64,000 nt of DNA. Origin: a bacterium. Lineage in GTDB: Bacteria > Patescibacteriota > Dojkabacteria > B142 > OLB20. Below, one piece after another: positions 9,101 to 52,292 of the stretch (its first letter is position 1; each line of letters starts with the position of its first letter). The DNA is taken from assembly GCA_037138855.1 (NCBI GenBank), contig JBAXHO010000001.1, positions 6,105-70,104 of the forward strand, written 5' to 3'. The notes beneath the pieces were generated by a model. That model saw nothing but the letters and a program-made list of their open reading frames with translations, made no database searches and was not told the origin of the DNA. A program made the translations under genes and the position numbers.

Positions 9101-9114
9101 TATGAAAGCGCAAT

Positions 9115-10047
9115 TTAATAATTAATAAAGCCAAGTTTTTTTGCTTCTAGATAAGAATATACTGGACTTAAACAATAATTGTTATCTTCGGCTACCCATT
9201 CAGCTAATGTTTTTTGAGCGATAATATTTTGGATCAGACTAATCACTGTTTCAGAAGTAGAAAAGTTATGTTGACTATAATCAGTTAGTTTATTTGTGGT
9301 ACAAAAATCATACCAAAATGCGGGTTCTAGAGCTGCTAAAACCATATAGCGATCATCTTTGGTTTTGTAGATATGGTAACAGGCATATTTGCCCCAAAGA
9401 GGCATTTCGTTTGGAGCAATATTATGTTCTAATTTAGCTTCTGCTGGTGCAGTTAGCGTAAAAAGATGCTGCATTGCCTGTAACATGGAAATATCTAGCC
9501 AGGTTGCTTTTCCGGTGATTTTTGTTGCTAAAATTTTATTTACAGCTTGATAACTTGTAATCACATCAGCAATTTGTACCGGTGGCAAAGGCATCTCTTC
9601 AGAATAGCGGGATTGATAGTCCAGATAACCACTGACTGCAAGAATATTTATATCATGTGCTGCCTTTTTACTTAACGGGTGTTCGTAGCCATAACCGGTA
9701 ATGGAACAGTAAATCAGATTGGGATTGATTTTAATTAAATCCTGGTAGCCTAAACCCATTTTATCCAGAAAATGCGGACGAAAATTTTCGATAATGGCAT
9801 CAGCGGAGCGAACTTCTTCAAGAATTTGTGCTTTACCTTGGTCACTGCGGAGGTCCAGACGAATTAATTTTTTATTTTTATTCAATTCCTGATAAATGAC
9901 ACTAATACCATTTTCAGTAGGTTGTAAATTTCGGAGTAAATCAAAATTGGCATCATGTTCAATTTTGATAATTTCTGATCCCAGTTCGCCGAGAATACTG
10001 GCTGCAAGAGGACCTGGTAACAGGCTGGATAGATCGATTATTTTCAT
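9115..10047 (-). CDS. CoA-transferase family III (CaiB/BaiF/alpha-methylacyl-CoA racemase family)
   Basis: N-terminal IDLSSLLPGPLAASILGELGSEIIKIE is typical of family III CoA-transferases. 14 bp upstream of the fusion gene on the same strand. Confidence 0.8.
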   Translation of the reverse strand: MKIIDLSSLLPGPLAASILGELGSEIIKIEHDANFDLLRNLQPTENGISVIYQELNKNKKLIRLDLRSDQGKAQILEEVRSADAIIENFRPHFLDKMGLGYQDLIKINPNLIYCSITGYGYEHPLSKKAAHDINILAVSGYLDYQSRYSEEMPLPPVQIADVITSYQAVNKILATKITGKATWLDISMLQAMQHLFTLTAPAEAKLEHNIAPNEMPLWGKYACYHIYKTKDDRYMVLAALEPAFWYDFCTTNKLTDYSQHNFSTSETVISLIQNIIAQKTLAEWVAEDNNYCLSPVYSYLEAKKLGFINY

Positions 10048-10517
10048 ATTTTGTCATTGAATAGTGAATATTATGCATACTAATTTGTGGAAAATCAACG
10101 TTTTGTTATTTTTTGATGGTGCTAAAGTAGATAATTTAAATAATAATTTCGTCAAGCAGACTGTAGGATAAAGTGCCTCAGATGTAAAAATATTTATTAT
10201 AAAAATCTCCGGGGCGTTGGCACGCCCACCCCCAAGTTCATTATAGAACTTTTTATTAAGACTTTCATTGTGATGTAACACAAATTTCAACTTAATCTTG
10301 ATTTAATATTGTTGCACAGAAATGAAGTCATAAATGCTATATGGTTTTGTTTGGTATAATACCGGTCTTAGTTCGATTTTGTGAATTTGTAATGAATATC
10401 AATCAAACTGATGTGCTATTAATTGTGAATTTCACTTTTTTGACAAACTATCTTTTTAATCCGATAATAAAAGTATCCTTTTGTAATTTCGCATTAATTA
10501 TTTAATATTTCTTTATC

Positions 10518-11255
10518 ATGTGCACAACCTTCGCCAAAAAAATCGACAATACTTGGTATCTCGGTAAGACTCGCGATCCTGTTAGTTGGATGCGTTGGGA
10601 TGATGAGATTAAATTGTTTGCAGAGGCAGGGGATAAATTCAGGAAATTGCTTGTGCAAAATCCCAATCCTAAAGAGGATGGTTATTATGGAGGTATTAAT
10701 GAAAAGGGTGTTGCTATAGTTGCTACCTATGTTAAAACAGCTGAAGAACAGGTTTCTTATATTCGACGTCCATACGTAAGATTAATTTTGGATGCTGCAA
10801 CTGCCGAAGAAGCAGTGGAAATTATTAAAAAATTTAATCCTTTAATCGGTGGCAATATGTTTGTGGCTGATAAAAAGAAGTGTTTCGGTATTGAAGGTGG
10901 CTCTAAAAGTATTTATGTGGAGGAAATTAAAGATCAGGCAGTGAAAACTAATCATTTTCTGCATTTGGATGAAGTTAATCTTAATTTTTCCAGATTACCT
11001 AAGTTTAAGGACTGGACTGAGGCTCATTTTGATCGGGCAACGGAATTACTTGGTGCAGCAAAAAGTCTGGAAGGTTTAGAAAATCTTCTGAAAGATCGCC
11101 AGGGCAGTGAATTGAAGCAGGCAATTTGTACGACAAGTGCCGAAGATGAATGCTATACCTATTCGGCGGTGATTTTCGATACGAACAAAGTAATTGCACA
11201 TTATGCTCAAGGGAACCCCAGTGAAGTGCCTTTTAAGGAATATAATTTTAAGTAA
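10518..11255 (+). CDS. Ntn-hydrolase with N-terminal Cys nucleophile (choloylglycine hydrolase / penicillin V acylase / C45-like linear amide hydrolase)
   Basis: Starts MCTTFAKK...; Cys2 after Met removal is the hallmark of this family. It is shorter (245 aa) than typical members. Divergent from the CoA-transferase operon. Confidence 0.5.
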   Translation: MCTTFAKKIDNTWYLGKTRDPVSWMRWDDEIKLFAEAGDKFRKLLVQNPNPKEDGYYGGINEKGVAIVATYVKTAEEQVSYIRRPYVRLILDAATAEEAVEIIKKFNPLIGGNMFVADKKKCFGIEGGSKSIYVEEIKDQAVKTNHFLHLDEVNLNFSRLPKFKDWTEAHFDRATELLGAAKSLEGLENLLKDRQGSELKQAICTTSAEDECYTYSAVIFDTNKVIAHYAQGNPSEVPFKEYNFK

Positions 11256-16198: not shown

Positions 16199-19100
16199 AT
16201 GGAACCGCAGTCTGCTCAAAGTATCAATCATGTTGCTCAAATCCGTAAATATTTCCCGATAATTATCGTTACAGTGGTTGTTTTAGTAGCTGCTTTAGCT
16301 ATTGTTGTGGTACAACGCATTCGCATTAATAACCTGCCAAATACAGGTACTGATAATCCCATTCCTACAGTGCCGCCAACATGTGATTTGGTTTGCGCAG
16401 ATGGACATTTGGATCCAAATATTTGTAGCTGTGTGCCAGATGTCACGTCAATTATTTCAACGAATACACCAATACTTATAATGGGAAACTATTTGTTAAA
16501 AAGTATGAGTGTTAGTCTTGATCAGGCAACTGGAAACAATGTGATTACTTATAAAGTTCAAAATGATGGTACAGCAGAAATCGCAGGGAATAGTTTTCAG
16601 AATACATATTGGATAAATCCCGTTCCAGAGCCAAGTAGTATTAATAATATTCAACCTACTCAATCCTTATTTCAAGCTAAGATTTTAACCAGTCAAAGAT
16701 TAAGTGCTGGTACATCTGGTCTTGGGACTATTTCAATTAATAATTCATCCATACCAGCAGGGGTCTATAAATTATGTATGTGGTACGATAGCTCAAAAGC
16801 CGTTAATGAGGCTAATGAAAATGACAATATTCTCTGTAGTCAAGTTACTCTAGCTATACCAGAAGCACCGGCATGTACCTCATTTACAAATATGTGGATT
16901 AATGATTGTAATAGTACAGGGTTACTCGGCACACCTCAATGTGCTACTACTTCTGATAAAGCAACGATTCATTATAATTCCAATGCTGCAAGTATGAAAT
17001 TTCTGGATGCAACATCTATGCCAGGTATATTGTGTAGTGCAATTCCGGATAGTACTTTTACCGGACAATCACAAATCTATGATGCAAATAATCCGACAAT
17101 TAATTGGACCTTAACACCTGGATTTGGATTAAAAAAGATTTGTGTCAGATTTGAAAATAGTGCTGGATCAAGTAAGTGTGGAGGAACTATTAATTACACG
17201 GGTGTTACTCCAGTTGTTACTAATACAGCAATACCAGTAAGTCCACCTCAATGTACATCATTTCAAAATATGTGGATTGAAGGATGTCAGAGCTGGAACG
17301 CAGCAGATCCAACGGCAAATGCTAGCTGTATCACAAACAATACAAATGTTCAAATTAATTTGAATTCTTCTAATGCTACTACAATGAGGTTTTATGAAAA
17401 GACTGCGAATTTGGATATAGCATGTAGTGCCCTTGATCCTGGAGCATTTCCAGTGGTATTTCAAAGTTATTATCCAACACACAATATTACATTATCATCG
17501 ACACCAGGAGAGAAGCAGGTATGTGTGAGTTTAGGAAATAGTGCAGGGTCAAGCCAATGCGGAGGAAAGATCTGGTTCCAACCATCAATTACTCCTACAA
17601 TTTCTACAATACCTTCACCAACTCCGACACCTCAAGGGGCACCGGAATGTACATCTTTTGTGAATATGTGGCTAGAAAATTGTAAAACTAATCAGATGAC
17701 AGGTCCAGATTGTACAATTAATACAAACAAATTAAATATCAATTTAGCTGTACCCAATATTACAGCTGGTTCGAAGATGAGTTTTTATGAAAAAACGGCT
17801 GCGGATGATCCAAAGGTGCTTTGTAACTCGATTGATCCAAATAAATTTTCTACACCAGTAGATTATGCTACTCAGGTAAAAGATTACCAATTACAAGCCA
17901 CAACTGGACAAGTGAAGGTCTGTGTTCGTTTAGTGAATAGTAGTGGCGCAGCTAGTCAGTGCGGTGGTGGAATAAATATTGTAGAACCTGTGTATCGAAT
18001 TTTAAAAGTTGAATCAGGAGCTGTTGTGACACTTTCCGGTTTGACCTTGATGGGTGGTCGTGCTGATATTGGTGCAGCTATCGAGAATTTTAGTTTTCTT
18101 GAGATTAATAATAGTATTATTGCCAATAATATCGCTGATGTTTATGGTGGCGGTATTTACAATGAGGGATATCTTTCGGTGAGAAATTCTATTTTCCACG
18201 CTAACTCAATAGGAAATACAAATGGAGCAGGAGGAGCGATATATTCGAGAAATACAAATGGCGGATCTTATCTTCAAAACTCTTTGACTATTAGTAAGAC
18301 TATGTTTGAAGGGAATATTGCAGGGACAGGAGGAGGAGGAGCTATTTATTCAGAGGATACTCCAGTAATGATATCAAGAAGCTCTTTCAAATTAAATCTA
18401 GCTCCGAGTGGAGGCGCATTGTATCTAACAGCTATAAGGAGTAACGATATATTAAATAGAATTGATAACTCCACATTTGCAAGTAATACAAGTATGTATG
18501 GTGTAATAAATAATACCGGTTCCAGCAAACATGTCAGGTTAGATTTAATGTTCTCTACTTTTGTATCTGATTTACCAAGCTCAGCAAATAATTTCACACT
18601 TTATTCTGGTACAAATTCAGAAATCAATTTTAGGAATAATATTTTAGCAGCAAAGGGAGCTACTCAATGTAATTCCATTCCAAATAGTTTAGGTGGAAAT
18701 GTAATAATTGATAGTAGCTGTACAGTATTACCTGTAAGTAATAATGATATAGTTGGAACTCAAGTCAACCCACTGTTATCTGCAGAGCAGACCATACCAG
18801 GAAACAAGACAGTATTTTTCTCAATTGATCAAAGTAGTCCAGCATTTAATAATGCGATAAATTGTACAGGTACACCAATCGATCAACTTGAACAAACACG
18901 TCCTCAGGGAAGTGCTTGTGATAGCGGTGCTTATGAATTTCCAATACCAGTAACGACAACTGTGACACCCACGCCTGCTACAGTGGCGATGACTTGTAGT
19001 GAGGGATTTACAGATGATTTCGGGAGATTTATGATCGATAGTAGCAGATGGAAAGTAAATATTGCTGACAGTTTAAAAACGAGTGTGGAAATTAATGCTC

Positions 19101-22100
19101 AGGGAGGTATGCTACTAATTCATATTAAGAAAGATAATTTAAATTTTGATACAACTCCTAATGTTCAGCTACAGCGTTGGATAACAGGAAATTTTAATGT
19201 AGAAGTAGATATGCTCCAATGGCAAACACCATTACCATTAGATAAGAAAGATACAGCAGTGGCTGCATTCCAAATTGTAGATAATACAGGATATGTCAGA
19301 AAAATTTGGTTTGAAGCAGCAACTTTATCAGATGGGGTAACAATTGATCCGAATAATTATCTATTAGCTTCTGATTCATATAAATTTAAAATTTTAGTAC
19401 CAAGATATGGTTCGGTACGATTGAAGGCAATTAAAACAGGTGAAGAAATCTCATATTTTTATACGGTTTTAAATCGTAACGATGGTAGTACGACTACAGG
19501 TTTTATTGGAAAAGATACTGGAGTGAAGGGAGTAAATGTTATGCCAATAATGAAGATGTCATCACCTCTAGCAAATACTTTTGAATTTGATAATTTCACT
19601 TTAAATTGTGATCAGGCAGTACCGGTATGTACATCATTTCAAAATATGTGGATAGAAGGATGTCAGAGTTGGAATGCAGCAGATCCAACGGCAAATGCTA
19701 GCTGTATCACAAACAATGCAAATGTTCAGATTCATTTAAACTCTCCTAATGCCAGTCAAATGCAGTTCTATGAAAAAACTGCAAACCTAAATATACCATG
19801 TAGTGCGCTTGATCCTGGTACATTTCCTCCAGAACAATATTATTCTTCAACACAAAATATTACATTATCATCGACACCAGGAGAGAAGCAGGTATGTGTA
19901 CGATTAACTAATAGTAATGGGTCAAGCCAATGCGGAGGAAAGATCTGGTTCCAACCATCAATTACACCTACAATTTCTACAATACCATCACCAACTCCGA
20001 CACCTCAAGGGGCACCGCAGTGTACATCTTTTGTGAATATGTGGTTGGAGAATTGTAAAACTAATCAGATGACAGGTCCAGCTTGTACAATTAATACAAA
20101 CAAATTAAATATCAATTTAGCTGTACCCAATATTACAGCTGGATCGATGATGAGTTTTTATGAGAGAACGGCAGCAGATGATCCCAAGGCTCTATGTAGT
20201 TCCTTTGATCCAAATAAATTTTCTACACCAGTTGATTATGCTACTCAGGTAAAAGATTACCAATTACAAGCTACAACTGGACAAGTGAAGGTCTGTGTTC
20301 GTTTAGTGAATGGTAGTGGTGCTGCTAGTCAGTGCGGTGGTGGTATTAATATTGTAGAACCTGTGTATCGAATTCTTCAAACTGCTGTAAATACAAATGT
20401 TACACTATCAGGAATTACTCTGCAGGGAGGTAGGGCAGATGGAGTTGGAGGAGCAACTATGGGTGGAGCTATAGCTAACTATGGAATTATGAATTTGAAT
20501 AATTCTATTTTAACAAATAACTCTGCGGTTTCTTCAGGAGGTGCAATATACAACGAAGGTATGCTTAGGATAAACGCTTCAAGAATATTTGCAAATACTA
20601 CTAAAGGGACTGGAATTGGTGGTGGAGGAGCAATTTATAACAATGGTACTCAATTAAACATTAGCACTTCAGCGCTAAATAGTAATCAATCTGGATCTGC
20701 CGGAGGAGGTGCGATTCTTTCTCGAGGTAGTGAGGTAAATATTTTAAAAAGTTCCTTCAAAGATAATATTACTACTGGTTCTGGAGGTGCTCTGAATTTC
20801 TTCAATGATCATGCCAGTATTCTGAAAAACATCATTATTAACTCTACATTTGCAGATAACTCTGTGCAATCAGGAGAAATCTATTCTAATGCAAGTTATC
20901 AATATAGTTTAGTGACAAATATTTCATTTTCAACTTTTACTTCAAAGAGTTCTGGGTCAAATACACTAGGAACAACATTGTTTGCAACTGGAAAGTCGGA
21001 AATGTTTATTAAAAATAACATTATCGCTGATAATCGTACAACTCAATGCAATTCACCTTTATTGATCGATAGTTCTGGAGGTAATGTGGTCTTAGATAGA
21101 TCATGTTTACAAGATCCAAATAATTTGAATGGCGATATTATTCAAAATCCAAAATTACAAGTTGAGGCTTCAAATGTAAATTATTATTCAGTTGCATATC
21201 CTATTGATCTTACTAGTCCAGCTGTTGATGCTGTTAAGGATTGTATGGATCTCGATATTACAACAATTGTCGAAGATCAGTGGGGTAGAGTAAGACCAAA
21301 TGGTAGTCTTTGTGACAGTGGTGCTTATGAATTTCTAATGGATGTGACACCTACTATTTCCACAATACCTTCACCAACCCCAACTCCAGTGGGAGCACCA
21401 GCATGTACATCTTTTGTAAACATGTGGATTGAGAATTGTAATGATAGTCAGGTTCCTGCTGGTCTTTGTACGGTATATAAAAATCATGTAACAATTCATT
21501 TGAATACGACAAATGCTAGTATGATGAGTTTTTATGAAAGGACGGCAGCAGATGATGTCAATGCGTTATGTAGTTCATTTGATCCTACTAAATTTTCGCC
21601 ACGAGTAAATTATGCTTCACAAGTAGATAATTTTCTATTGCATGCAACACCAGGGAAAGTAAAGGTATGTGTACGATTTGAGAATAGTAATGGAGCAGCG
21701 AGTCAGTGTGGTGGAGTGATTATTCTTGGAGATGCAATACCTACAGTGACACCATCCGTTACTCCTGTGCAGCCAAGTAATACTGTGATGCCATCAGCTA
21801 CAGCTGGGGTACAAAATAGTAATACACCGACACCAATTCGACCATCAAATACTGCTTCTGTCCCGACTAATACGAGGCCAGTGGTATATTACAGCGCGAC
21901 ACCTAGACCAACAACAAATGGCATAGTGACACCGACTATAACCGGTACAATTACCATAACTCCCAGTGGTTCGATTACAGTTACTCCGACAATAAAAGTA
22001 ACTGTCACTAATACTGGTACAGTGACACCTACAACAACGAATGGCGGTGGAATTTTAGGAAACTTTGATTTTGGTACATTTTTCTCCGACTTATTAAGTG

Positions 22101-22240
22101 GTAAGGCTTCACCATGGGGTTATCTTGGAGTAGCGCTTTGTTGCTTGTTCTGGTTGATATTGCTCTTATTATTAGTAGGATTGTTACGTCGCAGAAAAGA
22201 TGAAAATGGTGCCAATGCCATGTTTACTAATCAGATTTAG
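16199..22240 (+). CDS. Giant (2013 aa) surface adhesin: N-terminal TM, 6 copies of a ~120-aa 4-Cys domain (CTSFxNMW...QCGG), two polymorphic-membrane-protein (Pmp GGAI/FxxN) beta-helix regions, a lectin/LamG-like domain, a Thr/Pro stalk, and a C-terminal TM with RRRK stop-transfer
   Basis: Repeated GGAIY / GGGIYN / FHAN / FEGN / FKLN motifs. Six CTSF(Q/V/T)NMW(I/L)E..C modules. C-terminal TPTITGTITITPSG...LGVALCCLFWLILLLLLVGLLRRRK. Confidence 0.8.
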   Translation: MEPQSAQSINHVAQIRKYFPIIIVTVVVLVAALAIVVVQRIRINNLPNTGTDNPIPTVPPTCDLVCADGHLDPNICSCVPDVTSIISTNTPILIMGNYLLKSMSVSLDQATGNNVITYKVQNDGTAEIAGNSFQNTYWINPVPEPSSINNIQPTQSLFQAKILTSQRLSAGTSGLGTISINNSSIPAGVYKLCMWYDSSKAVNEANENDNILCSQVTLAIPEAPACTSFTNMWINDCNSTGLLGTPQCATTSDKATIHYNSNAASMKFLDATSMPGILCSAIPDSTFTGQSQIYDANNPTINWTLTPGFGLKKICVRFENSAGSSKCGGTINYTGVTPVVTNTAIPVSPPQCTSFQNMWIEGCQSWNAADPTANASCITNNTNVQINLNSSNATTMRFYEKTANLDIACSALDPGAFPVVFQSYYPTHNITLSSTPGEKQVCVSLGNSAGSSQCGGKIWFQPSITPTISTIPSPTPTPQGAPECTSFVNMWLENCKTNQMTGPDCTINTNKLNINLAVPNITAGSKMSFYEKTAADDPKVLCNSIDPNKFSTPVDYATQVKDYQLQATTGQVKVCVRLVNSSGAASQCGGGINIVEPVYRILKVESGAVVTLSGLTLMGGRADIGAAIENFSFLEINNSIIANNIADVYGGGIYNEGYLSVRNSIFHANSIGNTNGAGGAIYSRNTNGGSYLQNSLTISKTMFEGNIAGTGGGGAIYSEDTPVMISRSSFKLNLAPSGGALYLTAIRSNDILNRIDNSTFASNTSMYGVINNTGSSKHVRLDLMFSTFVSDLPSSANNFTLYSGTNSEINFRNNILAAKGATQCNSIPNSLGGNVIIDSSCTVLPVSNNDIVGTQVNPLLSAEQTIPGNKTVFFSIDQSSPAFNNAINCTGTPIDQLEQTRPQGSACDSGAYEFPIPVTTTVTPTPATVAMTCSEGFTDDFGRFMIDSSRWKVNIADSLKTSVEINAQGGMLLIHIKKDNLNFDTTPNVQLQRWITGNFNVEVDMLQWQTPLPLDKKDTAVAAFQIVDNTGYVRKIWFEAATLSDGVTIDPNNYLLASDSYKFKILVPRYGSVRLKAIKTGEEISYFYTVLNRNDGSTTTGFIGKDTGVKGVNVMPIMKMSSPLANTFEFDNFTLNCDQAVPVCTSFQNMWIEGCQSWNAADPTANASCITNNANVQIHLNSPNASQMQFYEKTANLNIPCSALDPGTFPPEQYYSSTQNITLSSTPGEKQVCVRLTNSNGSSQCGGKIWFQPSITPTISTIPSPTPTPQGAPQCTSFVNMWLENCKTNQMTGPACTINTNKLNINLAVPNITAGSMMSFYERTAADDPKALCSSFDPNKFSTPVDYATQVKDYQLQATTGQVKVCVRLVNGSGAASQCGGGINIVEPVYRILQTAVNTNVTLSGITLQGGRADGVGGATMGGAIANYGIMNLNNSILTNNSAVSSGGAIYNEGMLRINASRIFANTTKGTGIGGGGAIYNNGTQLNISTSALNSNQSGSAGGGAILSRGSEVNILKSSFKDNITTGSGGALNFFNDHASILKNIIINSTFADNSVQSGEIYSNASYQYSLVTNISFSTFTSKSSGSNTLGTTLFATGKSEMFIKNNIIADNRTTQCNSPLLIDSSGGNVVLDRSCLQDPNNLNGDIIQNPKLQVEASNVNYYSVAYPIDLTSPAVDAVKDCMDLDITTIVEDQWGRVRPNGSLCDSGAYEFLMDVTPTISTIPSPTPTPVGAPACTSFVNMWIENCNDSQVPAGLCTVYKNHVTIHLNTTNASMMSFYERTAADDVNALCSSFDPTKFSPRVNYASQVDNFLLHATPGKVKVCVRFENSNGAASQCGGVIILGDAIPTVTPSVTPVQPSNTVMPSATAGVQNSNTPTPIRPSNTASVPTNTRPVVYYSATPRPTTNGIVTPTITGTITITPSGSITVTPTIKVTVTNTGTVTPTTTNGGGILGNFDFGTFFSDLLSGKASPWGYLGVALCCLFWLILLLLLVGLLRRRKDENGANAMFTNQI

Positions 22241-30530: not shown

Positions 30531-31034
30531 ATGTCCCGAAAATACGAAGCGGAATTTAATACATTTTATCAGAAAAGTTTTTTAGTTTTAATCAAGTATT
30601 TTTTAAGACGAGTACCGAAGTTGGTTGATGCTGAAGATTTGACAGCTGAAACATTTATTGTAATCTGGGAAAATTGGGAGAAGATTGAAAAAGAAACCAG
30701 GCAGAATTTTCTTTTTGGCATTGCCCGAAATAAGTTAAATACATATTTGAGAAAAAAATATCAACTTGAGATAAGAACCCGAGAATTTGATGAGAATACT
30801 GATCTAGAAATAGTTTCTGAGCAAAGAATTAATCCGGGAAATGCTAATTTGAAAAATATTTTAAGTGAATTAGTTAATCAGTTATCAGAACGGGAACAGT
30901 TTTTGATCAAAGCTAAATATATGAAGCACAAGACTTTTCGGGAATTGGCAGCCGAACTCAAGATTACTATCAATAATGCCAAAGTGATTCATAATCGTTT
31001 AATTAAAAACTTAAACAATCATGGCAACAAATGA
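30531..31034 (+). CDS. ECF-type RNA polymerase sigma factor (sigma-70 regions 2 and 4)
   Basis: Region 2 FLFGIARNKLNTYLRKK; region 4 SEREQFLIKAKYMKHKTFRELAAELKITINNAKVIHNRLIKNL. Confidence 0.8.
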   Translation: MSRKYEAEFNTFYQKSFLVLIKYFLRRVPKLVDAEDLTAETFIVIWENWEKIEKETRQNFLFGIARNKLNTYLRKKYQLEIRTREFDENTDLEIVSEQRINPGNANLKNILSELVNQLSEREQFLIKAKYMKHKTFRELAAELKITINNAKVIHNRLIKNLNNHGNK

Positions 31035-31365
31035 TTTAAACCACAATTTTGAAAAATATCTGGGTGATTCACTCAGTAATTCTGAAGAAAATTTTGATAT
31101 CCAATTAAGTCAGGTACGGGTTTTACAAAAAATAAAGGCAAAAACTCAGCAGTCGAAATGGCTGGTAATATTTAGTTATGGTTATTTAGTGTTGGCGATG
31201 GTAGTTGGACTTATTGTGATTTTTAATTTTAGTCCAACGGGTCTGAATAATTTTAGAATAAATAATACTATAAAAAATATTGATGAACAAAGCCAGGGCT
31301 TAAAAAGCGATGCAGCTGTATTCGACCAGATGGATGCAGATTTGAATGAGCTGGCTGAGCTGTAG
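31021..31365 (+). CDS. Putative anti-sigma factor (single-pass membrane protein), overlapping the sigma gene by 14 nt
   Basis: Position and overlap; single TM helix WLVIFSYGYLVLAMVVGLIVIF. Confidence 0.5.
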   Translation: MATNDLNHNFEKYLGDSLSNSEENFDIQLSQVRVLQKIKAKTQQSKWLVIFSYGYLVLAMVVGLIVIFNFSPTGLNNFRINNTIKNIDEQSQGLKSDAAVFDQMDADLNELAEL

Positions 31366-32155: not shown

Positions 32156-33067
32156 TCACGGACTCCAGTCAGCTTTCACATCATTAACTGCAGTTATTTT
32201 TTTACAGCGGGAATCTTTGGCACAAGCATCACTGGCTGCAGTCCAAACTACTGGAGTACAGTAGCTCACTGTACATTGTGCCTGGGTAGTTTGACGTTGC
32301 ACTGACTGACGGTCACTAGTGCACTGATTGCTACAGGCAATACCCAGACAGACATCAGCACATCCTGTGGCTGAACAGGTGCAAGTACCAGTAGCAGCAG
32401 CTGGTGTATTTGTCGGAGCAGTTGTATTTATCGGAGTAGGGGTTGGTGTATTAGCCACCATTGTAGTAGGACTAGGTCGGACCACAATACTAGGTGCAAT
32501 AGTCAAGGTTGGAGTATTACTGGATGGTAAAATTGTTCCAGGAGTTGGCGAATTAGCTGGAGGTGGATTACTAGTGGTCACAACACATTGGCAACTATTA
32601 TTACAAATTTTATTAGCATTACAGCCTTGATTGGAATAGGGTGGATCACACATTTCTCCTGAATTTAATACGCCATCACCACAAGTGGTGGTACCGGATT
32701 TTTTTTCAGTTTCTAAACGCCAGCAATATAAAACTCTAGAGATGTCATAGATATCAACTTTTTGGTCAATGGTGGTAGCAGATCCCCAGAGATCTGCACG
32801 GGTGTCGCGTGGAGTTACTTGCCAGTTCCAATTTGTCAGTACTAGATTTAAATCATAACTGTCGACCTTATTATCTTTGATGTTGTTGGCTCCGGTAATA
32901 TCAGCTTGAGAGCAGGCAGTATCCTGGGTTTGAATTAATTTCGCAAGTAAACGGGGGTCAAGACTTCCAATTTTGAGAAGCATCCAACTAGAACCAATAG
33001 TTACTAAACTTATAGCAATAGTGGAAACCAGAAAGTATAAATTTTTCTTTTTTAGTTTGATCTTCAA
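32156..33067 (-). CDS. Secreted dockerin-like (duplicated Ca-binding segment), Cys-rich and TP-rich protein
   Basis: Two dockerin-like segments: ADITGANNIKDNKVDSYDLNLVLTNW and ADLWGSATTIDQKVDIYDISRVLYCW. Then Cys-rich modules and a PTPT stalk. N-terminal TM/signal. Confidence 0.5.
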   Translation of the reverse strand: MKIKLKKKNLYFLVSTIAISLVTIGSSWMLLKIGSLDPRLLAKLIQTQDTACSQADITGANNIKDNKVDSYDLNLVLTNWNWQVTPRDTRADLWGSATTIDQKVDIYDISRVLYCWRLETEKKSGTTTCGDGVLNSGEMCDPPYSNQGCNANKICNNSCQCVVTTSNPPPANSPTPGTILPSSNTPTLTIAPSIVVRPSPTTMVANTPTPTPINTTAPTNTPAAATGTCTCSATGCADVCLGIACSNQCTSDRQSVQRQTTQAQCTVSYCTPVVWTAASDACAKDSRCKKITAVNDVKADWSP

Positions 33068-33085
33068 CTGAAGTTAAATTATGAA

Positions 33086-33727
33086 TTAGATGGGATGAAA
33101 TTCTTCTAATTTACGATGTCGGTGCTTTAAACCGGCAATAATTATTAATAGAATGGATATCAATATTACTCCCCAGATCGAGATGAGAAGTGTATTATTT
33201 CCTAACTTACTGATAAAAGGAATATCTCCAGTAGCAGGTAAAGGTGCTTGAGCAAGAAAGCTGGAACTGACAAATGCAGAGCTCCGGTCTACAAGAATAT
33301 TTTCTGCTCTAGTATTTAAGAGTGAGGAAGTATTATCAATTTTTATTTCGGAAAAACTGTTTTGTTTTAATTTAAAATATATTCTAGCTAGTTTGCCCTG
33401 CCCTGTGAAAGCATTTCCAGGACTTACAAATTGAGAGATTTCAATTATTCCAGGTTGAAGTTCTTGGGCTTTTACTATTTCATCAAACACACTTTGGTTA
33501 TAGTCTATCTTTAAATATTCCAGTTGATTTTGTGGAAAAATAATAACTGCATTTACTACATTTACTGATTCTGAAGCTGTATCCAGATTCAGATCTACTA
33601 CAATTGTCTCACCAGCTTGTGCCAGTAAGTTTTGTGGTGTAAGTTCAAGTTTGGCAGTGAGTTCACTGGCTAAAACTAATCGTTGAGGAAGAGATAAAAT
33701 AATTACAATTAATAAAAAAATTATTAA
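33086..33727 (-). CDS. Cohesin-domain surface protein with a C-terminal LPXTG sortase signal; the true N-terminus is upstream of the track ORF and has no canonical start codon
   Basis: In-frame upstream translation gives FLIIFLLIVIILSLPQRLVLASELTAKLELTPQNLLAQAGETIVVDLNLDTASESVNVVNAVIIFPQNQLEYLKIDYNQSVFDEIV... (cohesin-like beta-sandwich signature). C-terminus LPATGD plus hydrophobic helix plus KHRHRK. In-frame stop at 33731-33733; no ATG/GTG/TTG between it and the signal peptide. Confidence 0.55.
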   Translation of the reverse strand, partial: LIIFLLIVIILSLPQRLVLASELTAKLELTPQNLLAQAGETIVVDLNLDTASESVNVVNAVIIFPQNQLEYLKIDYNQSVFDEIVKAQELQPGIIEISQFVSPGNAFTGQGKLARIYFKLKQNSFSEIKIDNTSSLLNTRAENILVDRSSAFVSSSFLAQAPLPATGDIPFISKLGNNTLLISIWGVILISILLIIIAGLKHRHRKLEEFHPI

Positions 33728-33804
33728 AAATTAAATTTTTTAGCTTAGAGTTCCAATTGGTTAGATTTTGTTGAAGAAAATTCATTAATTATTTTTGCCT
33801 GGTA

Positions 33805-34731
33805 TTAAATTGCCGTGATGGCTGCTTTTATTACTTTAGCAGATTTTTTCAATTTAGTTAATTCTGAAGCATTGAGTTTAGGAATAATTCTTTGCTGGGC
33901 GCCTTGAAAATTAAGTTGGACGGGCAAACTTAAGCAAACATTATTTAGTCCAAATTCACCTTCAAGTAGTGTGGAGAGTGGAAAAATCCTTCCAGAATTT
34001 GTCACTAACGCCTCGACGATGCTGGCAATTACTGCACCAATCCCATAATAAGTGGATTTTTTACCGGCGATAATTTTATATGCGGATTCGCGAACGTCTT
34101 TTTCTAATTGTTTGGTTTGAATTTTTTCCATTTTTAGTTTTTCTGTGATAGGTAGACCACCATAACTGGCAATACTTTCTGCGAAAAATGAGCTGTCGCC
34201 ATGTTCGCCTAGTTGATAGGCATGAATATTAATGGGATTAAGATTGAGTTTATCACTGATGAAATAGCGAATCCGGGCTGTATCCAAGGAAGTACCACTA
34301 CCAAAAACCATTCCTTGGGGCATTTTAGCCTGTTTAATTGCAAAATAAGTAACTACATCAACAGGATTAGTGACAATTAAAATATATAATGGTTTGGCCA
34401 CGGCGGTAAGTTGGTCAATTACCTGATTGACAATTTTAACATTGATTTTGGCAAGATCAAGTCTCGACTGGCCCGGTTTTTGAGCGGCGCCACAGGTTAT
34501 TATTACAATATCATTAGGTCTCACATCTTGATAAGTACCGGTAAAAACCTTGACGCCTGGTGCATACGAGCTACTTTGTTGCAAATCCATTACTTGAGCT
34601 TCCACCAATTCCTTGGCGATATCAATTAAAATAACTTCACTAACAATTTGGCGAAGCATCAAGGCATAGGCTGCTGTAGAGCCAACCATGCCAGCTCCGA
34701 TAATTACAGCACGACGATTAGGTTGAATCAT
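33805..34731 (-). CDS. ldh: L-lactate dehydrogenase
   Basis: IIGAGMVGSTAAYAL (NAD fold), ...QLGEHGDS (LDH signature), VTNPVD. Confidence 0.9.
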   Translation of the reverse strand: MIQPNRRAVIIGAGMVGSTAAYALMLRQIVSEVILIDIAKELVEAQVMDLQQSSSYAPGVKVFTGTYQDVRPNDIVIITCGAAQKPGQSRLDLAKINVKIVNQVIDQLTAVAKPLYILIVTNPVDVVTYFAIKQAKMPQGMVFGSGTSLDTARIRYFISDKLNLNPINIHAYQLGEHGDSSFFAESIASYGGLPITEKLKMEKIQTKQLEKDVRESAYKIIAGKKSTYYGIGAVIASIVEALVTNSGRIFPLSTLLEGEFGLNNVCLSLPVQLNFQGAQQRIIPKLNASELTKLKKSAKVIKAAITAI

Positions 34732-35115
34732 AATAATATTTTAAAAAAGTAATAAGTATTAGTGTAGCAAATTGGTGATACAAAAGAAAAGGTGGATGAG
34801 TAGTTGAAATAAAAGATTAAAATATTAACGAGTTAACGGATTAATCCTGAAATATGTTCAGGAAAAAGGATTAAAATGAAAACTGGAATCCGGAATCTGA
34901 AATCAGTAAATTAATATTAGGTTTAACAGGAGGGTTTGCAGATCTGCAAACCGTGCGGCGAGCTCTTCTCCAAATTGCTATTTGCAAATTTCAAATTGCA
35001 TAATTCTTTCAGATTTCGGATTTCATAATAACGAATTTTGCTGATGTTACGGTTTTTTTGTGATCAAGGTGGTTGCTCTTACGTTTTAGCATCTTATCTT
35101 TTAAATTTTAAACTG

Positions 35116-35478
35116 ATGAAAAAATTAATTATTTTTGTTACTGTGGGAATTTCATTACTTTTGGTAGGCTGCGGCAGTAGTAAGACATCCAGTTCTACCA
35201 ATTCTACTATTAAAAATATTGTTACGATAGTACAGTCGCAAACGTATACTATTACTGATGTTGCGAAGCATAGTACAGCTAACGATTGTTGGACAATTGT
35301 TGGTGGTAACGTTTATGATTTGACTTCATTTGTCGGACGCCATCCTGGTGGTGACGTAATATTGCAGGCTTGTGGTATTGATGGCACCAATCTGTTTAAC
35401 AATCGTAATGGTTTAGGCCCGCATCCAGGAAAAGCTGAAACGACTTTGGCGACTTTGAAGATTGGAGTAATCAAATAA
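35116..35478 (+). CDS. Lipoprotein with a cytochrome b5-like heme-binding domain
   Basis: Lipobox LLLVGC at the ATG 35116 start; HPGG motif FVGRHPGGDVI. The track ORF begins at an upstream alternative start, 35038. Confidence 0.6.
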   Translation: MKKLIIFVTVGISLLLVGCGSSKTSSSTNSTIKNIVTIVQSQTYTITDVAKHSTANDCWTIVGGNVYDLTSFVGRHPGGDVILQACGIDGTNLFNNRNGLGPHPGKAETTLATLKIGVIK

Positions 35479-35625
35479 AAAAACAATTTAAGATTAAAAA
35501 GGTAAGTAACGAATTTTGACTTTCGTGTTATAATTATTTTGTTCTTTGACAATCCTTTCGACGTTCCCCACCAGAAAATAAATTTTGAAACCGATAACCG
35601 GTCACCGGATACCGATTTTTTGGTG

Positions 35626-36113
35626 GGGGATGTATGGCTTCGACAGGGAATATTACTGGTTTTTGGCAAGCCGAGGTTTTTGGATACGGAGTCCTCGTAA
35701 AACAAACTGGTCCTCCGGTTATTTTGACCGGGCCGCATAATAAGCGTCAAAACCAAATTTCAAGATTTCGTTGCTGGCGTACAGGGCACAGTTGCAGCTA
35801 TCGCTGCTTCCTTTGCTCCTGCATTAGCTTTCAACGGAGTTGTTGCCTAAACTGGAGTTTCTCCAGGGATAAGCGCGAAAGCGCGGTAACCTTCTAGTGT
35901 TCTTCTCTCCTGATGGGAGGCACTAGGAGAAACATAGTCAGGATACAAGACTTAGCAATAGCATTCTGCTAAGTCCCACGCAAAATGTCTGCTGGCGGGA
36001 ATTGGTTTTAGCTTACTTCTATCAACTTCTCGTCTAAAAATCCAAGTAAGCTACGCTTGTACACTGAGAATCGGTAAGTTTTCTGGACGCGGGTTCGATC
36101 CCCGCCATCTCCA
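35626..36113 (+). ncRNA. ssrA: tmRNA (ssrA), one-piece, CCA not encoded; unusually long (~488 nt)
   Basis: 5' end GGGGAUGUAUGGCUUCGACAGGG (acceptor plus tRNA-like D region). PK1-like GCCGAGG...CCUCGUAAAAC. Ala-rich tag frame ...GTVAAIAASFAPALAFNGVVA followed by UAA. 3' end GGACGCGGGUUCGAUCCCCGCCAUCUCCA (T-arm plus acceptor). 5' GGGGAUG pairs with 3' CAUCUCC. Confidence 0.7.
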
Positions 36114-36127
36114 TAAATTTTGCCTGC

Positions 36128-50546: not shown

Positions 50547-51509
50547 TTATTCTAAAATCGAAAAATAATAGTTTTGAAAATTAAATAGCTGGTTCTGTTC
50601 GTCAGCACAGCGTAATTTTTTATCCAATTGAACCATTTCAGTTTTATTATATTCATTAAAAATACTAAAAGTGACTAAAGTGACTTGATTATTATCGAGA
50701 TATGTAGTTTGAAGCATGGCCACGATATTTTGAAAAAGTAATTTGCAATAAGAACAAGAAAAATCTATAAAAACTATAATATAATTAGTATTACTATTAC
50801 CTTGAGTAATACCACCGGTAATAGTAATTGGTTTTATTGGATAACCTTGTTGAAATTTCGCCTCGATTTCAGCCATTTGAGTTGTCAATTGTTGTTGCTG
50901 AGTTGCTTCATTAGAGAATTCACTTTGGCGGGAAATGATATCTTTATTAATTTCATTCTCAATTCCTTTCAGCTGAGAGGCAATCCAAAGGTCGTGGGTT
51001 TTGGTGATGTTGTTTTGGGTGAGATAATTCAGGATTGTTTTCAATTCTTTTGCTTGTGTCGACTCAGGTACTTCAAAGCCTTCTAGTTTGTCGCCATTTT
51101 TTTTGGCGATAAAGACAGAAGGAGAAAATCCGACCTTATTGTCCTGGTAGCTTTTTTCGGCAGCGGCGATTTGGCTGGTAAAATCCTGCGTTTGTAGACA
51201 TTTATCAAATTGAGTTTTATCGATTTGTGATTTATCCAGATAGAGATTGGTACATTGATCAGACAATGGGTTACTTGGCTGACAGCCATAATTATCTAAT
51301 ACCACTTGTTCAATAACGGGAATAGCAATTGTTGGAGCTGGCGTAACATTAATTAAGCTAGTAGAGTTATTATTCTCGGAATCCGGGTTAGTTTTGAATC
51401 TCATTACAATTATCACGAAAATAAGTCCAGCGAAAATCCCAATCAGGAAAGAAGCAAGTAATATAATTGGAAGTTTTTGCTTCATAATTAAAGTAAGAAA
51501 AATCAACAA
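50547..51509 (-). CDS. Membrane-anchored DsbA/thioredoxin-like thiol-disulfide oxidoreductase
   Basis: CxxC active site FIDFSCSYCKLLF in a thioredoxin-like context; N-terminal TM. Confidence 0.6.
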   Translation of the reverse strand: MLIFLTLIMKQKLPIILLASFLIGIFAGLIFVIIVMRFKTNPDSENNNSTSLINVTPAPTIAIPVIEQVVLDNYGCQPSNPLSDQCTNLYLDKSQIDKTQFDKCLQTQDFTSQIAAAEKSYQDNKVGFSPSVFIAKKNGDKLEGFEVPESTQAKELKTILNYLTQNNITKTHDLWIASQLKGIENEINKDIISRQSEFSNEATQQQQLTTQMAEIEAKFQQGYPIKPITITGGITQGNSNTNYIIVFIDFSCSYCKLLFQNIVAMLQTTYLDNNQVTLVTFSIFNEYNKTEMVQLDKKLRCADEQNQLFNFQNYYFSILE

Positions 51510-51650: not shown

Positions 51651-52292
51651 TTAATTTCGATTTTGCTTTTGGATAAAGTGTGACAGTAGTAGGCCACAAA
51701 TCAAGCCAGTACCGTGGGCTACTAGGTATGGATAATTATGTGTTACTAACATGGAAATAAGAAAACTAATGATAATACCAATTCCCAATACGCGTTGCCG
51801 ATAGGTTCTTAATATCTGGGGAATCAATAAATAAATACCCATTAAGCCAAATCCTACATTGGAAAGTCCAATATCCTGATAATTTCTCAATTGAAAAAGT
51901 TGATATAAAACTAAATATTCTACTAAGATTGTAATGATATTGTAGATCATGATTGTAAAGAGCAGCTTTTTGCTGCCCAAACAATATTCATACCAGAAAA
52001 AGAAGGGCACCATGAGTAAAATCCCTGGTAACATTGCTGGGTCTCTCACAGCTAGAAGCATTGTAAAATGCCGATAAAGTAGACTGAGATCAATTTGATT
52101 AAAAATTATTCCAAATTTGGTGATAACTGTTTCACTATGATTAAAGTTATATAAAGTACCAGAATAGGCATTGATAATCATAATACCAAGGAAAATACAG
52201 CAGGAAAGAGGCATTTTGAAAATCAGCTGTTTAAAATAACTAATTTGTTTTGTAATGTTCATGATAGAAATAATTTTAGCATTAAAGAGCAA
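51651..52292 (-). CDS. Polytopic membrane protein, possibly rhomboid-like
   Basis: GLSNVGFGLMG (cf. GxSGxxxG) and VAHGTGLICGL (cf. AHxxGxxxG); low certainty. Confidence 0.35.
   Translation of the reverse strand: MLFNAKIISIMNITKQISYFKQLIFKMPLSCCIFLGIMIINAYSGTLYNFNHSETVITKFGIIFNQIDLSLLYRHFTMLLAVRDPAMLPGILLMVPFFFWYEYCLGSKKLLFTIMIYNIITILVEYLVLYQLFQLRNYQDIGLSNVGFGLMGIYLLIPQILRTYRQRVLGIGIIISFLISMLVTHNYPYLVAHGTGLICGLLLSHFIQKQNRN

Follow-up and report, generated by a model that had tools for sequence, protein, structure and literature searches.

A probable non-cellulosomal cohesin–dockerin surface-display cassette in a Patescibacteria-like genome, with its cohesin gene broken in a T7 run

Two adjacent genes on the reverse strand of the window (the whole 64-kb stretch of DNA that was analysed) probably form a non-cellulosomal cohesin–dockerin surface-display cassette, in which an anchored cohesin would receive an exported, dockerin-bearing stalk protein and in which the cohesin gene is broken by an extra T. 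This reading rests on the identities of the two modules, on the frame break itself, on a gene order conserved in relatives and on a paralogous locus in the same bin. The cohesin gene is here called gene A and the dockerin gene gene B. Their features, with the gene that precedes them, are as follows.

33805-34731, reverse strand: L-lactate dehydrogenase gene, directly upstream of gene A (Pfam Ldh_1_N 1.1e-37, Ldh_1_C 2.4e-29)
33721-33785, reverse strand: upstream-frame 5' part of gene A, with the n-region and first part of the Sec signal peptide
33714-33720, reverse strand: T7 homopolymer, the likeliest site of the +1 frame break (deletion of one T brings the ATG and the cohesin sequence into a single frame)
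33086-33730, reverse strand: gene A, 214 codons and a stop in the cohesin frame, which encode the remainder of the signal peptide, then cohesin and sorting signal
33257-33667, reverse strand: cohesin module of the 'type 1' paralogue group (Pfam Cohesin, PDB profile search, fold search)
33227-33241, reverse strand: LPATG sortase-type motif of gene A (sequence)
33110-33190, reverse strand: hydrophobic helix of gene A (33128-33190), then the KHRHRK stop-transfer tail (33110-33127) (sequence; model)
32156-33067, reverse strand: gene B, 303-aa stalk protein that bears a dockerin and starts at TTG (full-length homologues P0003, P0004, P0005 and P0009, alignment A3)
32939-33040, reverse strand: N-terminal leader of gene B, with the h-region LYFLVSTIAISLVTIGSSWMLL and then the conserved SLDPRLLAK (alignment A3)
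32720-32914, reverse strand: dockerin module of gene B, C52-W116, with two loop-helix repeats (32828-32902 and 32720-32794)
32585-32683, reverse strand: Cys-rich CGDG...E.CDPP repeat of gene B (many multi-repeat matches to residues 126-166)
32387-32578, reverse strand: Pro/Thr-rich linker, or stalk, of gene B (sequence; length variable among homologues in A3)
32159-32386, reverse strand: C-terminal Cys-rich domain of gene B, about 76 aa, the presumed displayed 'head' (conserved Cys columns in A3)

In the proposed working of the cassette, the product of gene A would be a single cohesin with a Sec signal peptide and a sorting signal composed of LPATG, a hydrophobic segment and a positively charged end. 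It is from this C-terminal signal that processing by a sortase, and hence linkage of the cohesin to the wall, is predicted; otherwise the cohesin would remain membrane-anchored. The product of gene B would be exported and its divergent calcium-loop dockerin would plug into the cohesin. Such physical binding, predicted here from sequence, would hold the Pro/Thr stalk and the small Cys-rich head at the cell surface, where the head would most likely act as an adhesin or ligand-binding tip.

The sequence features described in the initial annotation were all found where it had placed them or within a few bases. It had observed that gene A lacks a canonical start near the signal peptide, and this holds, the earliest ATG, GTG or TTG in the cohesin frame being a GTG at 33490; the start at 33727 that it gave is arbitrary, as the codon there is TTA. 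The stop-to-stop ORF spans 33089-33730 (reverse strand), with its stop codon at 33086-33088, and opens on the remainder of a signal peptide, LLIVIILSLPQRLVLA followed by SE. In the upstream frame, an ATG at 33785-33783 (reverse strand) begins the translation MNFLQQNLTNWNSKLKNLIFNNF, and the N-terminal signal peptide, the export signal of gene A, is complete only after repair of the T7 run. This run is the longest homopolymer between the last ATG-frame residue and the first cohesin-frame residue to match the paralogue. In BLASTP, the repaired protein matches the same-bin paralogue (L001:8732-9397) at E 8e-32 overall, and NWNSKLKNLIF, upstream of the break, aligns with the paralogue's NLNTKLILIF. 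The rare start codon or mis-assembly proposed earlier is therefore better replaced by a one-base break in T7 below the ATG at 33785: the upstream-frame peptide aligns with the N-terminus of the paralogue, and the truncated call appears in JGI, NCBI, ENA and Logan. The lactate dehydrogenase stop lies 19 nt from this ATG, and that gene is possibly co-transcribed with the gene A locus; a scan for promoters and terminators gave the same counts as in shuffles.

As sequenced, gene A cannot give a secreted cohesin. The break is probably a genuine mutation, and its nature, judged from the sequence, would be that of a recent pseudogene or of a slippage-prone off state. The truncated 134-aa product is called on the 40,016-bp contig of JGI/IMG and on the 88.9-kb contig of NCBI, ENA and Logan, which argues that the break is real (pseudogene or off state), with the limit that assemblies sharing it may come from the same or related read sets. 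It is unlikely that the break is a sequencing or assembly error, the true run being T6, gene A intact (232 aa from the ATG at 33785) and the pair a fully functional two-gene docking unit. The T6 version does yield a textbook signal peptide, MNFLQQNLTNWNSKLKNLIFNNFLLIVIILSLPQRLVLA followed by SE, the family's invariant residues are kept in the remaining 214 codons, which are otherwise undamaged, and indel errors classically fall in homopolymers. Against an error stand the identical 134-aa product of the two contigs, the length of the run, seven bases being short for a consensus error, and a damaged cohesin gene in the relative L004/L005, of which a deleted remnant is left and from which it follows that decay of such genes does occur. 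The other 214 codons of gene A are stop-free, which is compatible with decay and equally with an error, a reversible switch or a break of very recent origin.

That gene A is translated in spite of the break is very unlikely, whether from a non-canonical start (ATA at 33724 or ATT at 33721), by +1 ribosomal frameshifting or by transcriptional slippage on U7/T7. The cohesin frame has no canonical start before 33490, the ATA and ATT codons lie right behind the in-frame stop, and T7 permits tRNA-Phe to re-pair in the +1 frame. Starting at ATA or ATT would, however, produce a leader lacking both a charged n-region and a recognisable ribosome-binding purine tract, and would leave unexplained why the upstream-frame peptide is homologous to the paralogue. 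The shift needed is +1, yet the codon behind the slippery UUU is the common AUU, neither a stop nor rare; the homologues, moreover, have ordinary ATG starts. T7 is below the run length usually tied to efficient transcriptional slippage. A -1 frameshift on U UUU UUA was also considered and is ruled out, as the frames need +1.

Gene A holds one cohesin only. The Pfam searches proposed with the initial annotation gave less than it expected: Cohesin (PF00963) matches gene A just below its threshold (E 9.3e-5, 23.1 bits; gathering score 24.1), and Dockerin_1 (PF00404) has no match in gene B at E<=1. The trimmed cohesin domain has no Pfam Cohesin match at E<=0.1, and the model matches four of eight members (gene A and seven relatives), with a best E of 1.9e-7. 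The identification of gene A as a cohesin with an LPXTG-type sorting signal is upheld by the profile of these eight members, which matches the PDB cohesin 3l8q_A at E 1.3e-8 and four further cohesins at about 8e-5; some 20 of the 26 PDB matches listed are cohesins. The single-sequence AlphaFold model of the domain is of low confidence (pLDDT 58) and has nine predicted strands, the cohesin fold being a nine-stranded jelly-roll beta-sandwich; Foldseek places cohesins at the top for this low-confidence model (6kge_A, 5nrm_A, 2jh2_A, 1g1k_A and 2xdh; E about 3e-3, TM 0.37-0.40). Identity is 36, 30 and 28% to type 1 cohesins of relatives and 20-25% to their type 2 cohesins. When gene A, gene B and the cohesin domain served as queries in word-indexed homologue searches, each returned the query protein itself only; PDB searches with single sequences gave nothing useful, and a first metagenome scan with gene A as query gave no matches. 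Three alignments were used: A1 for the dockerin, A2 for the cohesin and A3 for gene B with its full-length homologues.

The C-terminus of gene A runs from LPATG through a 12-residue spacer and a hydrophobic segment of 21 residues, LLISIWGVILISILLIIIAGL, to KHRHRK and seven more residues. It thus has the pattern of a sorting signal, with an LPXTG motif, a hydrophobic segment and a positively charged tail, and the low-confidence model has a helix at mature residues 158-189. At the equivalent place the type 2 cohesins of relatives carry LPHTA, LPATG, IPNTA, IPDTA, LPNTG, LPQTG, VPATG or LPETG, so that the motif of the paralogous cohesins can be written [LIVM]PxT[GA]. As type 1 orthologues of gene A lack an LPXTG motif, that of gene A would be lineage-specific. 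An origin of gene A by fusion, with the domain from a type 1 cohesin and the tail from type 2, was considered and rejected, because the segment after LPATG (FISKLGNN..., then a TM helix) resembles, by inspection, the type 1 tails of L006 and L008. Among ORFs of at least 100 aa in the 64-kb window there is no sortase by TLxTC motif or Pfam Sortase match, and none was found in the fetched flanks. LPXTG-type proteins other than gene A are present in the same bin and in relatives, and one of them, an LPNTG protein of the same bin (L001 15738-16484), suggests that a sortase gene exists in the bin; a sortase has been reported in a closed Microgenomates genome (PMC7143001).

In gene B, the dockerin module is flanked by near-invariant cysteines, C52 and C115, and each of its repeats has a 5-residue insertion in the calcium loop. 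The 26-residue repeats ADITGANNIKDNKVDSYDLNLVLTNW and ADLWGSATTIDQKVDIYDISRVLYCW have 12 of 26 residues identical and score 58 when aligned without gaps under BLOSUM62; the best repeat score in 300 shuffled versions of the gene B protein had a mean of 28.1, a standard deviation of 4.6 and a maximum of 47. Dockerin loops have Asp or Asn ligands at positions 1, 3, 5, 9 and 12. Across 20 sequences, Asp at loop positions 1, 5 and 12 is invariant in both repeats and position 9 is D, N, S or T; in gene B position 3 is T or W and the insertion lies behind position 4. At the site of the insertion, homologues P0005 and P0009 have an uninterrupted canonical 12-residue loop, DFNSDGLINGAD. Gene B therefore has the tandem loop-helix (F-hand) arrangement of a dockerin, and a high-confidence model predicts the dockerin fold. 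The module also behaves as a terminal tag on diverse secreted proteins, as dockerins do: residues 48-117 have matches at the very C-terminal ends of some 20 larger secreted proteins, which include beta-helix/NosD, subtilase, pectate-lyase-like and 3-keto-disaccharide-hydrolase-like proteins.

Gene B lies below the curated thresholds of both PF00404 and NF041540. Seven relatives have weak Dockerin_1 matches (13.8-16.6 bits, cut-off 22.9); NCBIfam NF041540 (dockerin_GC) gives gene B 18.6 bits and all four family members tested 18.6-23.1 bits, the cut-off being 29. Dockerins make up 6 of the 11 PDB matches of the dockerin profile and EF-hands another 3, and with a repeat score beyond the shuffle maximum this sustains the earlier claim of a two-segment dockerin, albeit a divergent one; no other dockerin motif was found in the 64-kb window. 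That the two genes are mere neighbours, a generic spacer or Ig-like beta-sandwich beside a generic EF-hand-like calcium-binding stabiliser with no cohesin–dockerin contact, is highly improbable, even though the curated models are not passed and calmodulin and LETM1 EF-hands appear at similar E-values in the same profile search.

Gene B starts 18 nt past the gene A stop, and the position of its TTG agrees with the N-termini of homologues; the NCBI version (275 aa) begins at Met29 and loses the hydrophobic leader. The leader motif SLDPRLLAK is found in 16 dockerin-bearing matches and in no other real ORF of about 180 kb of fetched DNA. The Cys-rich and TP-stalk regions noted earlier are indeed present, as the CGDG...CDPP repeat, the Pro/Thr linker and the C-terminal Cys-rich domain. 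This last domain has no Pfam or NCBIfam match, and gene B has no catalytic domain. A DsbA-like thioredoxin encoded at 50547-51509 is consistent with extracellular disulfides. No relative was found in scans of GTDB genome contigs, whether the query was gene B by itself or the alignment. A metagenome scan with A3 yielded just two loci that are true orthologues, most of its matches being unrelated CGDG-repeat proteins.

Gene B and its dockerin module have relatives labelled Candidatus Dojkabacteria or Patescibacteria, and it is on these labels that the Patescibacteria placement of the bin, that of an uncultured, ultrasmall and low-GC bacterium, is based. Every gene B relative examined (L001, L002/L003, L006, L008 and L041) has one or more cohesin genes directly upstream, fused double cohesins occurring in L006, L008 and L041, and in L004/L005 it is the deleted cohesin remnant that occupies this position. 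Relatives have two cohesin paralogues, one TM-anchored and one LPXTG. In L042/L043 and L044/L045, a set of two or three genes for dockerin-tagged enzymes directly precedes cohesin anchor genes, also two or three in number, and dockerin-tagged beta-helix and pectate-lyase-like proteins adjoin two or three anchored cohesin genes in other Patescibacteria. This conserved adjacency agrees with the initial suggestion of a general protein-display module. On a second contig of this bin lies a paralogous cassette that is complete, with three genes, for a TM-anchored cohesin, an LPHTA cohesin and a gene B paralogue, P0003 (MEI7578872.1, WCJ58_02405; the window genes are WCJ58_00175 to 00185). The pair cannot then be called a minimal system, as it had been, with gene A as sequenced unable to give a secreted protein and a complete cassette elsewhere in the bin; because of that second cassette, gene B may still be displayable.

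A wider proposal is that Dojkabacteria-type Patescibacteria possess a surface-assembly system of their own, apart from cellulosomes, of which the window holds a phase-variable copy; as a whole this is speculative and quite improbable. Its dockerin subfamily would be marked by extended calcium loops and a Cys-Cys clasp, and an N-terminal leader on almost every cargo (a hydrophobic segment, then S-L-D-I-R-x-x-A) would mark the route. Membrane-anchored and wall-anchored cohesins would be paired as receptors, and slippage at T7 would toggle the anchor, varying the Cys-rich adhesive tip shown to a host cell or substrate.

Patescibacteria, or CPR bacteria, are thought to be attached to other cells or particles, and how their surfaces are built is little understood. 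The display cassette favoured here is a compact, conserved unit that combines genes for anchored cohesins with genes for dockerin-tagged proteins. Because the dockerin subfamily is too diverged for the standard models, surveys that rely on Pfam or NCBIfam will undercount such systems; alignments A1 and A2 and the high-confidence dockerin model are possible seeds for better searches. The principle is not new: cohesin–dockerin display and sortase anchoring are established, and so are uses outside cellulosomes.

Among known systems, ScaE-CttA of Ruminococcus flavefaciens pairs a sortase-anchored single-cohesin protein with a neighbouring dockerin-bearing, non-catalytic adhesin. As in the window, one cohesin is followed by an LPXTG sorting signal and, by analogy, the neighbouring gene would encode a non-enzymatic dockerin protein with a binding module at its other end, the shared role presumably being cell-surface attachment rather than catalysis. 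Any sequence similarity between the two pairs is confined to the module level. Unlike CttA, gene B has its dockerin near the N-terminus, lacks an X-module and carries a Cys-rich head in place of a cellulose-binding module; the window organism, moreover, is a Patescibacteria-like MAG whose relatives use TM-anchored and LPXTG cohesin paralogues. The NagH dockerin and NagJ cohesin of Clostridium perfringens (PDB 2ozn) form a non-cellulosomal toxin-enzyme complex, but their modules lie within large glycoside hydrolases, the cohesin has no dedicated anchor protein and the calcium loops are the canonical 12 residues.

Among family models, NF041540 ('GC-type dockerin domain-anchored protein') matches gene B across both repeats (profile positions 1-57 of 67), and the module ends, as in NF041540 and PF00404, in a G-C-W-like motif, LYCW in gene B and LGCW in most relatives. 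Most gene B-type members differ from these models by the five residues inserted after position 4, ahead of position 5, in the loop of each repeat and by a conserved Cys ahead of repeat 1.

A cellulosome is defined by a scaffoldin with two or more cohesins and dockerin-fused glycoside hydrolases (definition quoted in PMC13487519), whereas gene A has a single cohesin and gene B no catalytic domain. The minimal cellulosome-like system of Cellulosilyticum lentocellum (PMC13487519) likewise falls below the scaffoldin definition, with a single-cohesin protein and a dockerin partner, but its dockerin forms part of an active GH5 cellulase, as a fusion, and its cohesin protein has a CBM. The earlier view that such pairs are rare outside cellulolytic Firmicutes is not supported, as non-cellulosomal and CPR cohesin and dockerin genes have already been reported (PMC13487519, PMC10066038, PMC9123182, PMC10633639). 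The population of non-cellulosomal modules is described as wide (Peer et al. 2009, as quoted by PMC13487519 and PMC10066038), genes for both module types are reported in the CPR Microgenomates Cand. Shapirobacterales and Cand. Roizmanbacterium (PMC9123182), and an essential dockerin-domain protein is reported in a Saccharibacterium (PMC10633639). Among the features described in the accessible portions of the last two reports, operon layout, dual anchors and a loop-insertion dockerin subfamily do not figure, and the domain annotations are read there as cellulosome or glycan targeting, unlike here. These organisms resemble that of the window in belonging, as judged by the relatives of gene B, to the same superphylum, in having the same two module types and in encoding a lactate dehydrogenase, like the gene directly upstream of gene A.

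The cohesin–dockerin cassette of the window is real and of a known type, and it is partly disabled at this locus. Its two genes, the cohesin gene (gene A) and the gene for a dockerin-bearing stalk protein (gene B), follow a lactate dehydrogenase gene with short spacing:

33805-34731 (-), lactate dehydrogenase gene (Pfam Ldh_1_N, 1.1e-37)
33785-33783 (-), ATG opening the frame upstream of gene A, 19 nt past the dehydrogenase stop, encoding MNFLQQNLTNWNSKLKNLIFNNFF...
33730 to stop at 33086-33088 (-), gene A open frame, by translation
33227-33241 (-), LPATG of gene A, then a 12-residue spacer
33128-33190 (-), 21-residue hydrophobic segment of gene A, then KHRHRK and a short tail
33067 to 32156 (-), gene B, by translation from a TTG 18 nt past gene A

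The gene A product begins with a hydrophobic leader ending ...LPQRLVLA|SE, and ~137 beta-rich residues lie between this and LPATG; as a rough, inferred estimate, an LPxTG would fall within 30 residues of the helix by chance at ~5e-4. The initial annotation described the features of both genes accurately, and each part could be located.

The gene A frame has no ATG, GTG or TTG from 33730 until a GTG at 33490, for which a rare start or mis-assembly had been proposed. HIV-type -1 frameshifting on U UUU UUA is ruled out, as the shift needed is +1. A better explanation than a rare start is a frame break, most likely in a T7 run (33714-33720) downstream of the ATG at 33785: removal of one T joins the ATG frame to the cohesin frame, and the repaired N-terminus, MNFLQQNLTNWNSKLKNLIFNNFLLIVIILSLPQRLVLA|SELT, is a normal Sec leader. 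In a BLASTP comparison with its paralogue, the repaired protein aligns across the break, NWNSKLKNLIF pairing with the N-terminal NLNTKLILIF, which shows the upstream segment to be, judged by sequence, the ancestral N-terminus. A truncated 134-aa call from GTG 33490 stands in the JGI/IMG record (40,016-bp contig) and identically in NCBI (MEI7578439.1, WCJ58_00185), ENA and Logan (88.9-kb contig), so a real mutation is favoured over an error. As gene A has no further defect, the sequence suggests that the break is recent or reversible. Cohesin-gene damage has a second instance in the family, at L004 9380-10011/L005 1-569 (from a relative), where the first cohesin has been deleted along with the 5' portion of the next; the remnant is preceded by an in-frame TAG and the dockerin gene is intact.

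Pfam Cohesin matches the whole gene A protein at E 9.3e-5, although its 23.1 bits are borderline, under the gathering score of 24.1; the trimmed domain gave no Pfam Cohesin match at E<=0.1, and a single-sequence PDB search gave none. Relatives were collected from the neighbours of gene B homologues, and a profile of eight domains (A2) matches PDB cohesins (3l8q_A, E 1.3e-8; 1zv9, 1qzn, 3f2l and 3bwz, ~8e-5), which make up ~20 of the 26 listed matches. Pfam Cohesin is present in four of the eight (best E 1.9e-7), gene A matches its paralogue at E 8e-32 by BLASTP, and a fold search ranks cohesins first even with a low-confidence model of the single sequence (pLDDT 58). The relatives decide the borderline case, and we accept gene A as a putative divergent cohesin, as first proposed. 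It falls in the type 1 of two paralogous cohesin groups (28-36% identity, vs 20-25% to type 2). The remaining type 1 members are anchored by a transmembrane (TM) helix only, so its LPATG is a lineage-specific acquisition.

The 303-aa gene B product has a Lys-rich start, a 22-residue hydrophobic segment and a conserved SLDPRLLAK motif, then a pair of 26-residue repeats, a Cys-rich repeat of the form CGDG...CDPP, a Pro/Thr linker and a 76-residue Cys-rich end. The NCBI annotation (MEI7578438.1, 275 aa) starts at Met29 and would lose the hydrophobic leader; alignment of the homologues supports TTG 33067 as the true start. The repeats are the best internal pair (BLOSUM62 score 58; shuffles mean 28.1, sd 4.6, max 47). 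Among 1.84 billion representatives, searched exhaustively with HMMER, 37 proteins matched, four of them full-length homologues, and residues 48-117 match the extreme C-terminus of ~20 larger proteins (beta-helix/NosD proteins and one each of the subtilase, pectate-lyase-like and 3-keto-disaccharide-hydrolase-like kinds). Terminal placement on diverse larger proteins is usual dockerin behaviour. Across 20 aligned modules (A1), both repeats have an invariant Asp at loop positions 1, 5 and 12, and each end of the module has a near-invariant Cys. Two homologues, P0005 and P0009, have a canonical first loop, DFNSDGLINGAD, where gene B has DITG-ANNIK-DNKVDSYD; by this comparison its oddity is five extra residues following loop position 4. 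The A1 profile gave 11 weak PDB matches, six of them dockerins and three EF-hand proteins; an AlphaFold model of the module built with A1 (pLDDT 92.1, pTM 0.81) drew dockerins as all seven of its Foldseek PDB matches. Fold, repeats and use as a C-terminal tag in larger proteins uphold the proposed dockerin. The curated models do not: Pfam Dockerin_1 gave no match to gene B, and its NCBIfam dockerin_GC score of 18.6 bits falls short of the cut-off, 29. The module has, as modelled, the fold and logic of a dockerin, in a variant overlooked by standard profiles.

Relatives of gene B and of its module bear the labels Candidatus Dojkabacteria or Patescibacteria group. The window genes are WCJ58_00175 to 00185 of an NCBI MAG, and the closest homologue (P0003, 42% identity, MEI7578872.1) is WCJ58_02405, so its locus, L001, is another contig of the same bin. 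There a second, complete cassette lies at 8732-10930 (JGI Ga0194063_10000156), with first two ORFs overlapping by 29 nt and a gene B paralogue of 309 aa; the bin holds a further LPNTG protein. Cohesin genes lie directly upstream in all gene B relatives with recoverable context, and recur beside tagged enzymes:

L001, TM-anchored cohesin, LPHTA cohesin, gene B homologue
L002/L003, TM-anchored cohesin, LPATG cohesin, gene B homologue
L006 937-2256, L008 3-1007, L041 8740-10011, two cohesins fused in a single ORF by a TM hairpin
L042 5981-13916 (GCA_043816305.1), L044 10001-15200, two to three dockerin-tagged enzymes, then directly two to three cohesin anchor genes

In the fusions, a TM helix leads through a basic loop into another helix that resembles a signal peptide, an arrangement that would leave both cohesins facing outward. 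The tagged proteins of L042 and L044 are beta-helix or pectate-lyase-like, and the anchors end in a TM helix, LPNTG and LPQTG on one contig and VPATG and LPETG on the other; each is a small cellulosome-like locus in Patescibacteria, possibly pectin-directed. This gene order supports the general display system envisaged by the initial annotation. No sortase was found among window ORFs of at least 100 aa by Pfam scans or by the TLxTC motif; a closed Microgenomates genome is reported to encode one (PMC7143001).

In three loci the cluster has an ECF-type sigma-70 gene within 1-5 kb (window 30531-31365; L042 18901-19458; L044 20796-21341). In the window it overlaps a downstream small membrane protein gene, a possible anti-sigma factor. 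By analogy this nearness recalls sigma/anti-sigma control of cellulosome genes, and may be coincidence.

Dockerin-bearing proteins share a leader: a Lys-rich start and ~20 hydrophobic residues, followed 3-6 residues later by [S/N/T][L/F]-D-[I/P]-R-x-x-A. It is carried by gene B (32939-33040), P0003, P0004, P0008, P0010, P0011, P0013, P0019, P0023, P0024, P0025, P0031 and P0034. The motif is confined to dockerin-bearing ORFs in ~180 kb of fetched DNA, where ordinary A-x-A signal peptides are found on the cohesins and on other secreted proteins. The leader may serve as a signal dedicated to sorting or processing, or may simply reflect shared ancestry. A DsbA/thioredoxin-like protein (50547-51509 (-), E 3.4e-9) fits the many extracellular Cys-rich domains, and the adjoining gene encodes a weak, below-threshold rhomboid-like membrane protease (51651-52292 (-), E 6.2e-4), which might, speculatively, process membrane-anchored leaders.

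Elsewhere in the window, a cytochrome b5-like product (35038-35478 (+), E 5.1e-18) has a lipobox-like LLVGC after an internal Met, which suggests a surface lipoprotein. A tmRNA gene (35626-36116 (+), 112.7 bits; ARAGORN tag peptide AAIAASFAPALAFNGVVA) probably carries insertions, being 491 nt long against a 374-position Rfam model; ORFs called over it (35313-35756 and others) are spurious. A 2013-residue ORF (16199-22240 (+)), giant for a small-genome organism, has no Pfam match at E<=0.001.

The premise that such pairs are rare outside cellulolytic Firmicutes fails: earlier reports note CPR Microgenomates with genes for cohesins and dockerins (PMC9123182), a dockerin-domain protein in a Saccharibacterium (PMC10633639) and a wide population of non-cellulosomal modules (PMC13487519, PMC10066038). 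New here are a Cys-clasped subfamily of dockerins with loop insertions, the conserved dual-anchor cassette and the frame-broken paralogue, gene A. In Ruminococcus flavefaciens, ScaE-CttA combines a sortase-anchored single cohesin with a neighbouring dockerin adhesin, and the gene A–gene B pair may be likened to it in function. In structure, the modelled gene B dockerin is nearest a non-cellulosomal dockerin of Clostridium perfringens. The pair is not a cellulosome under the usual definition, as quoted in PMC13487519.
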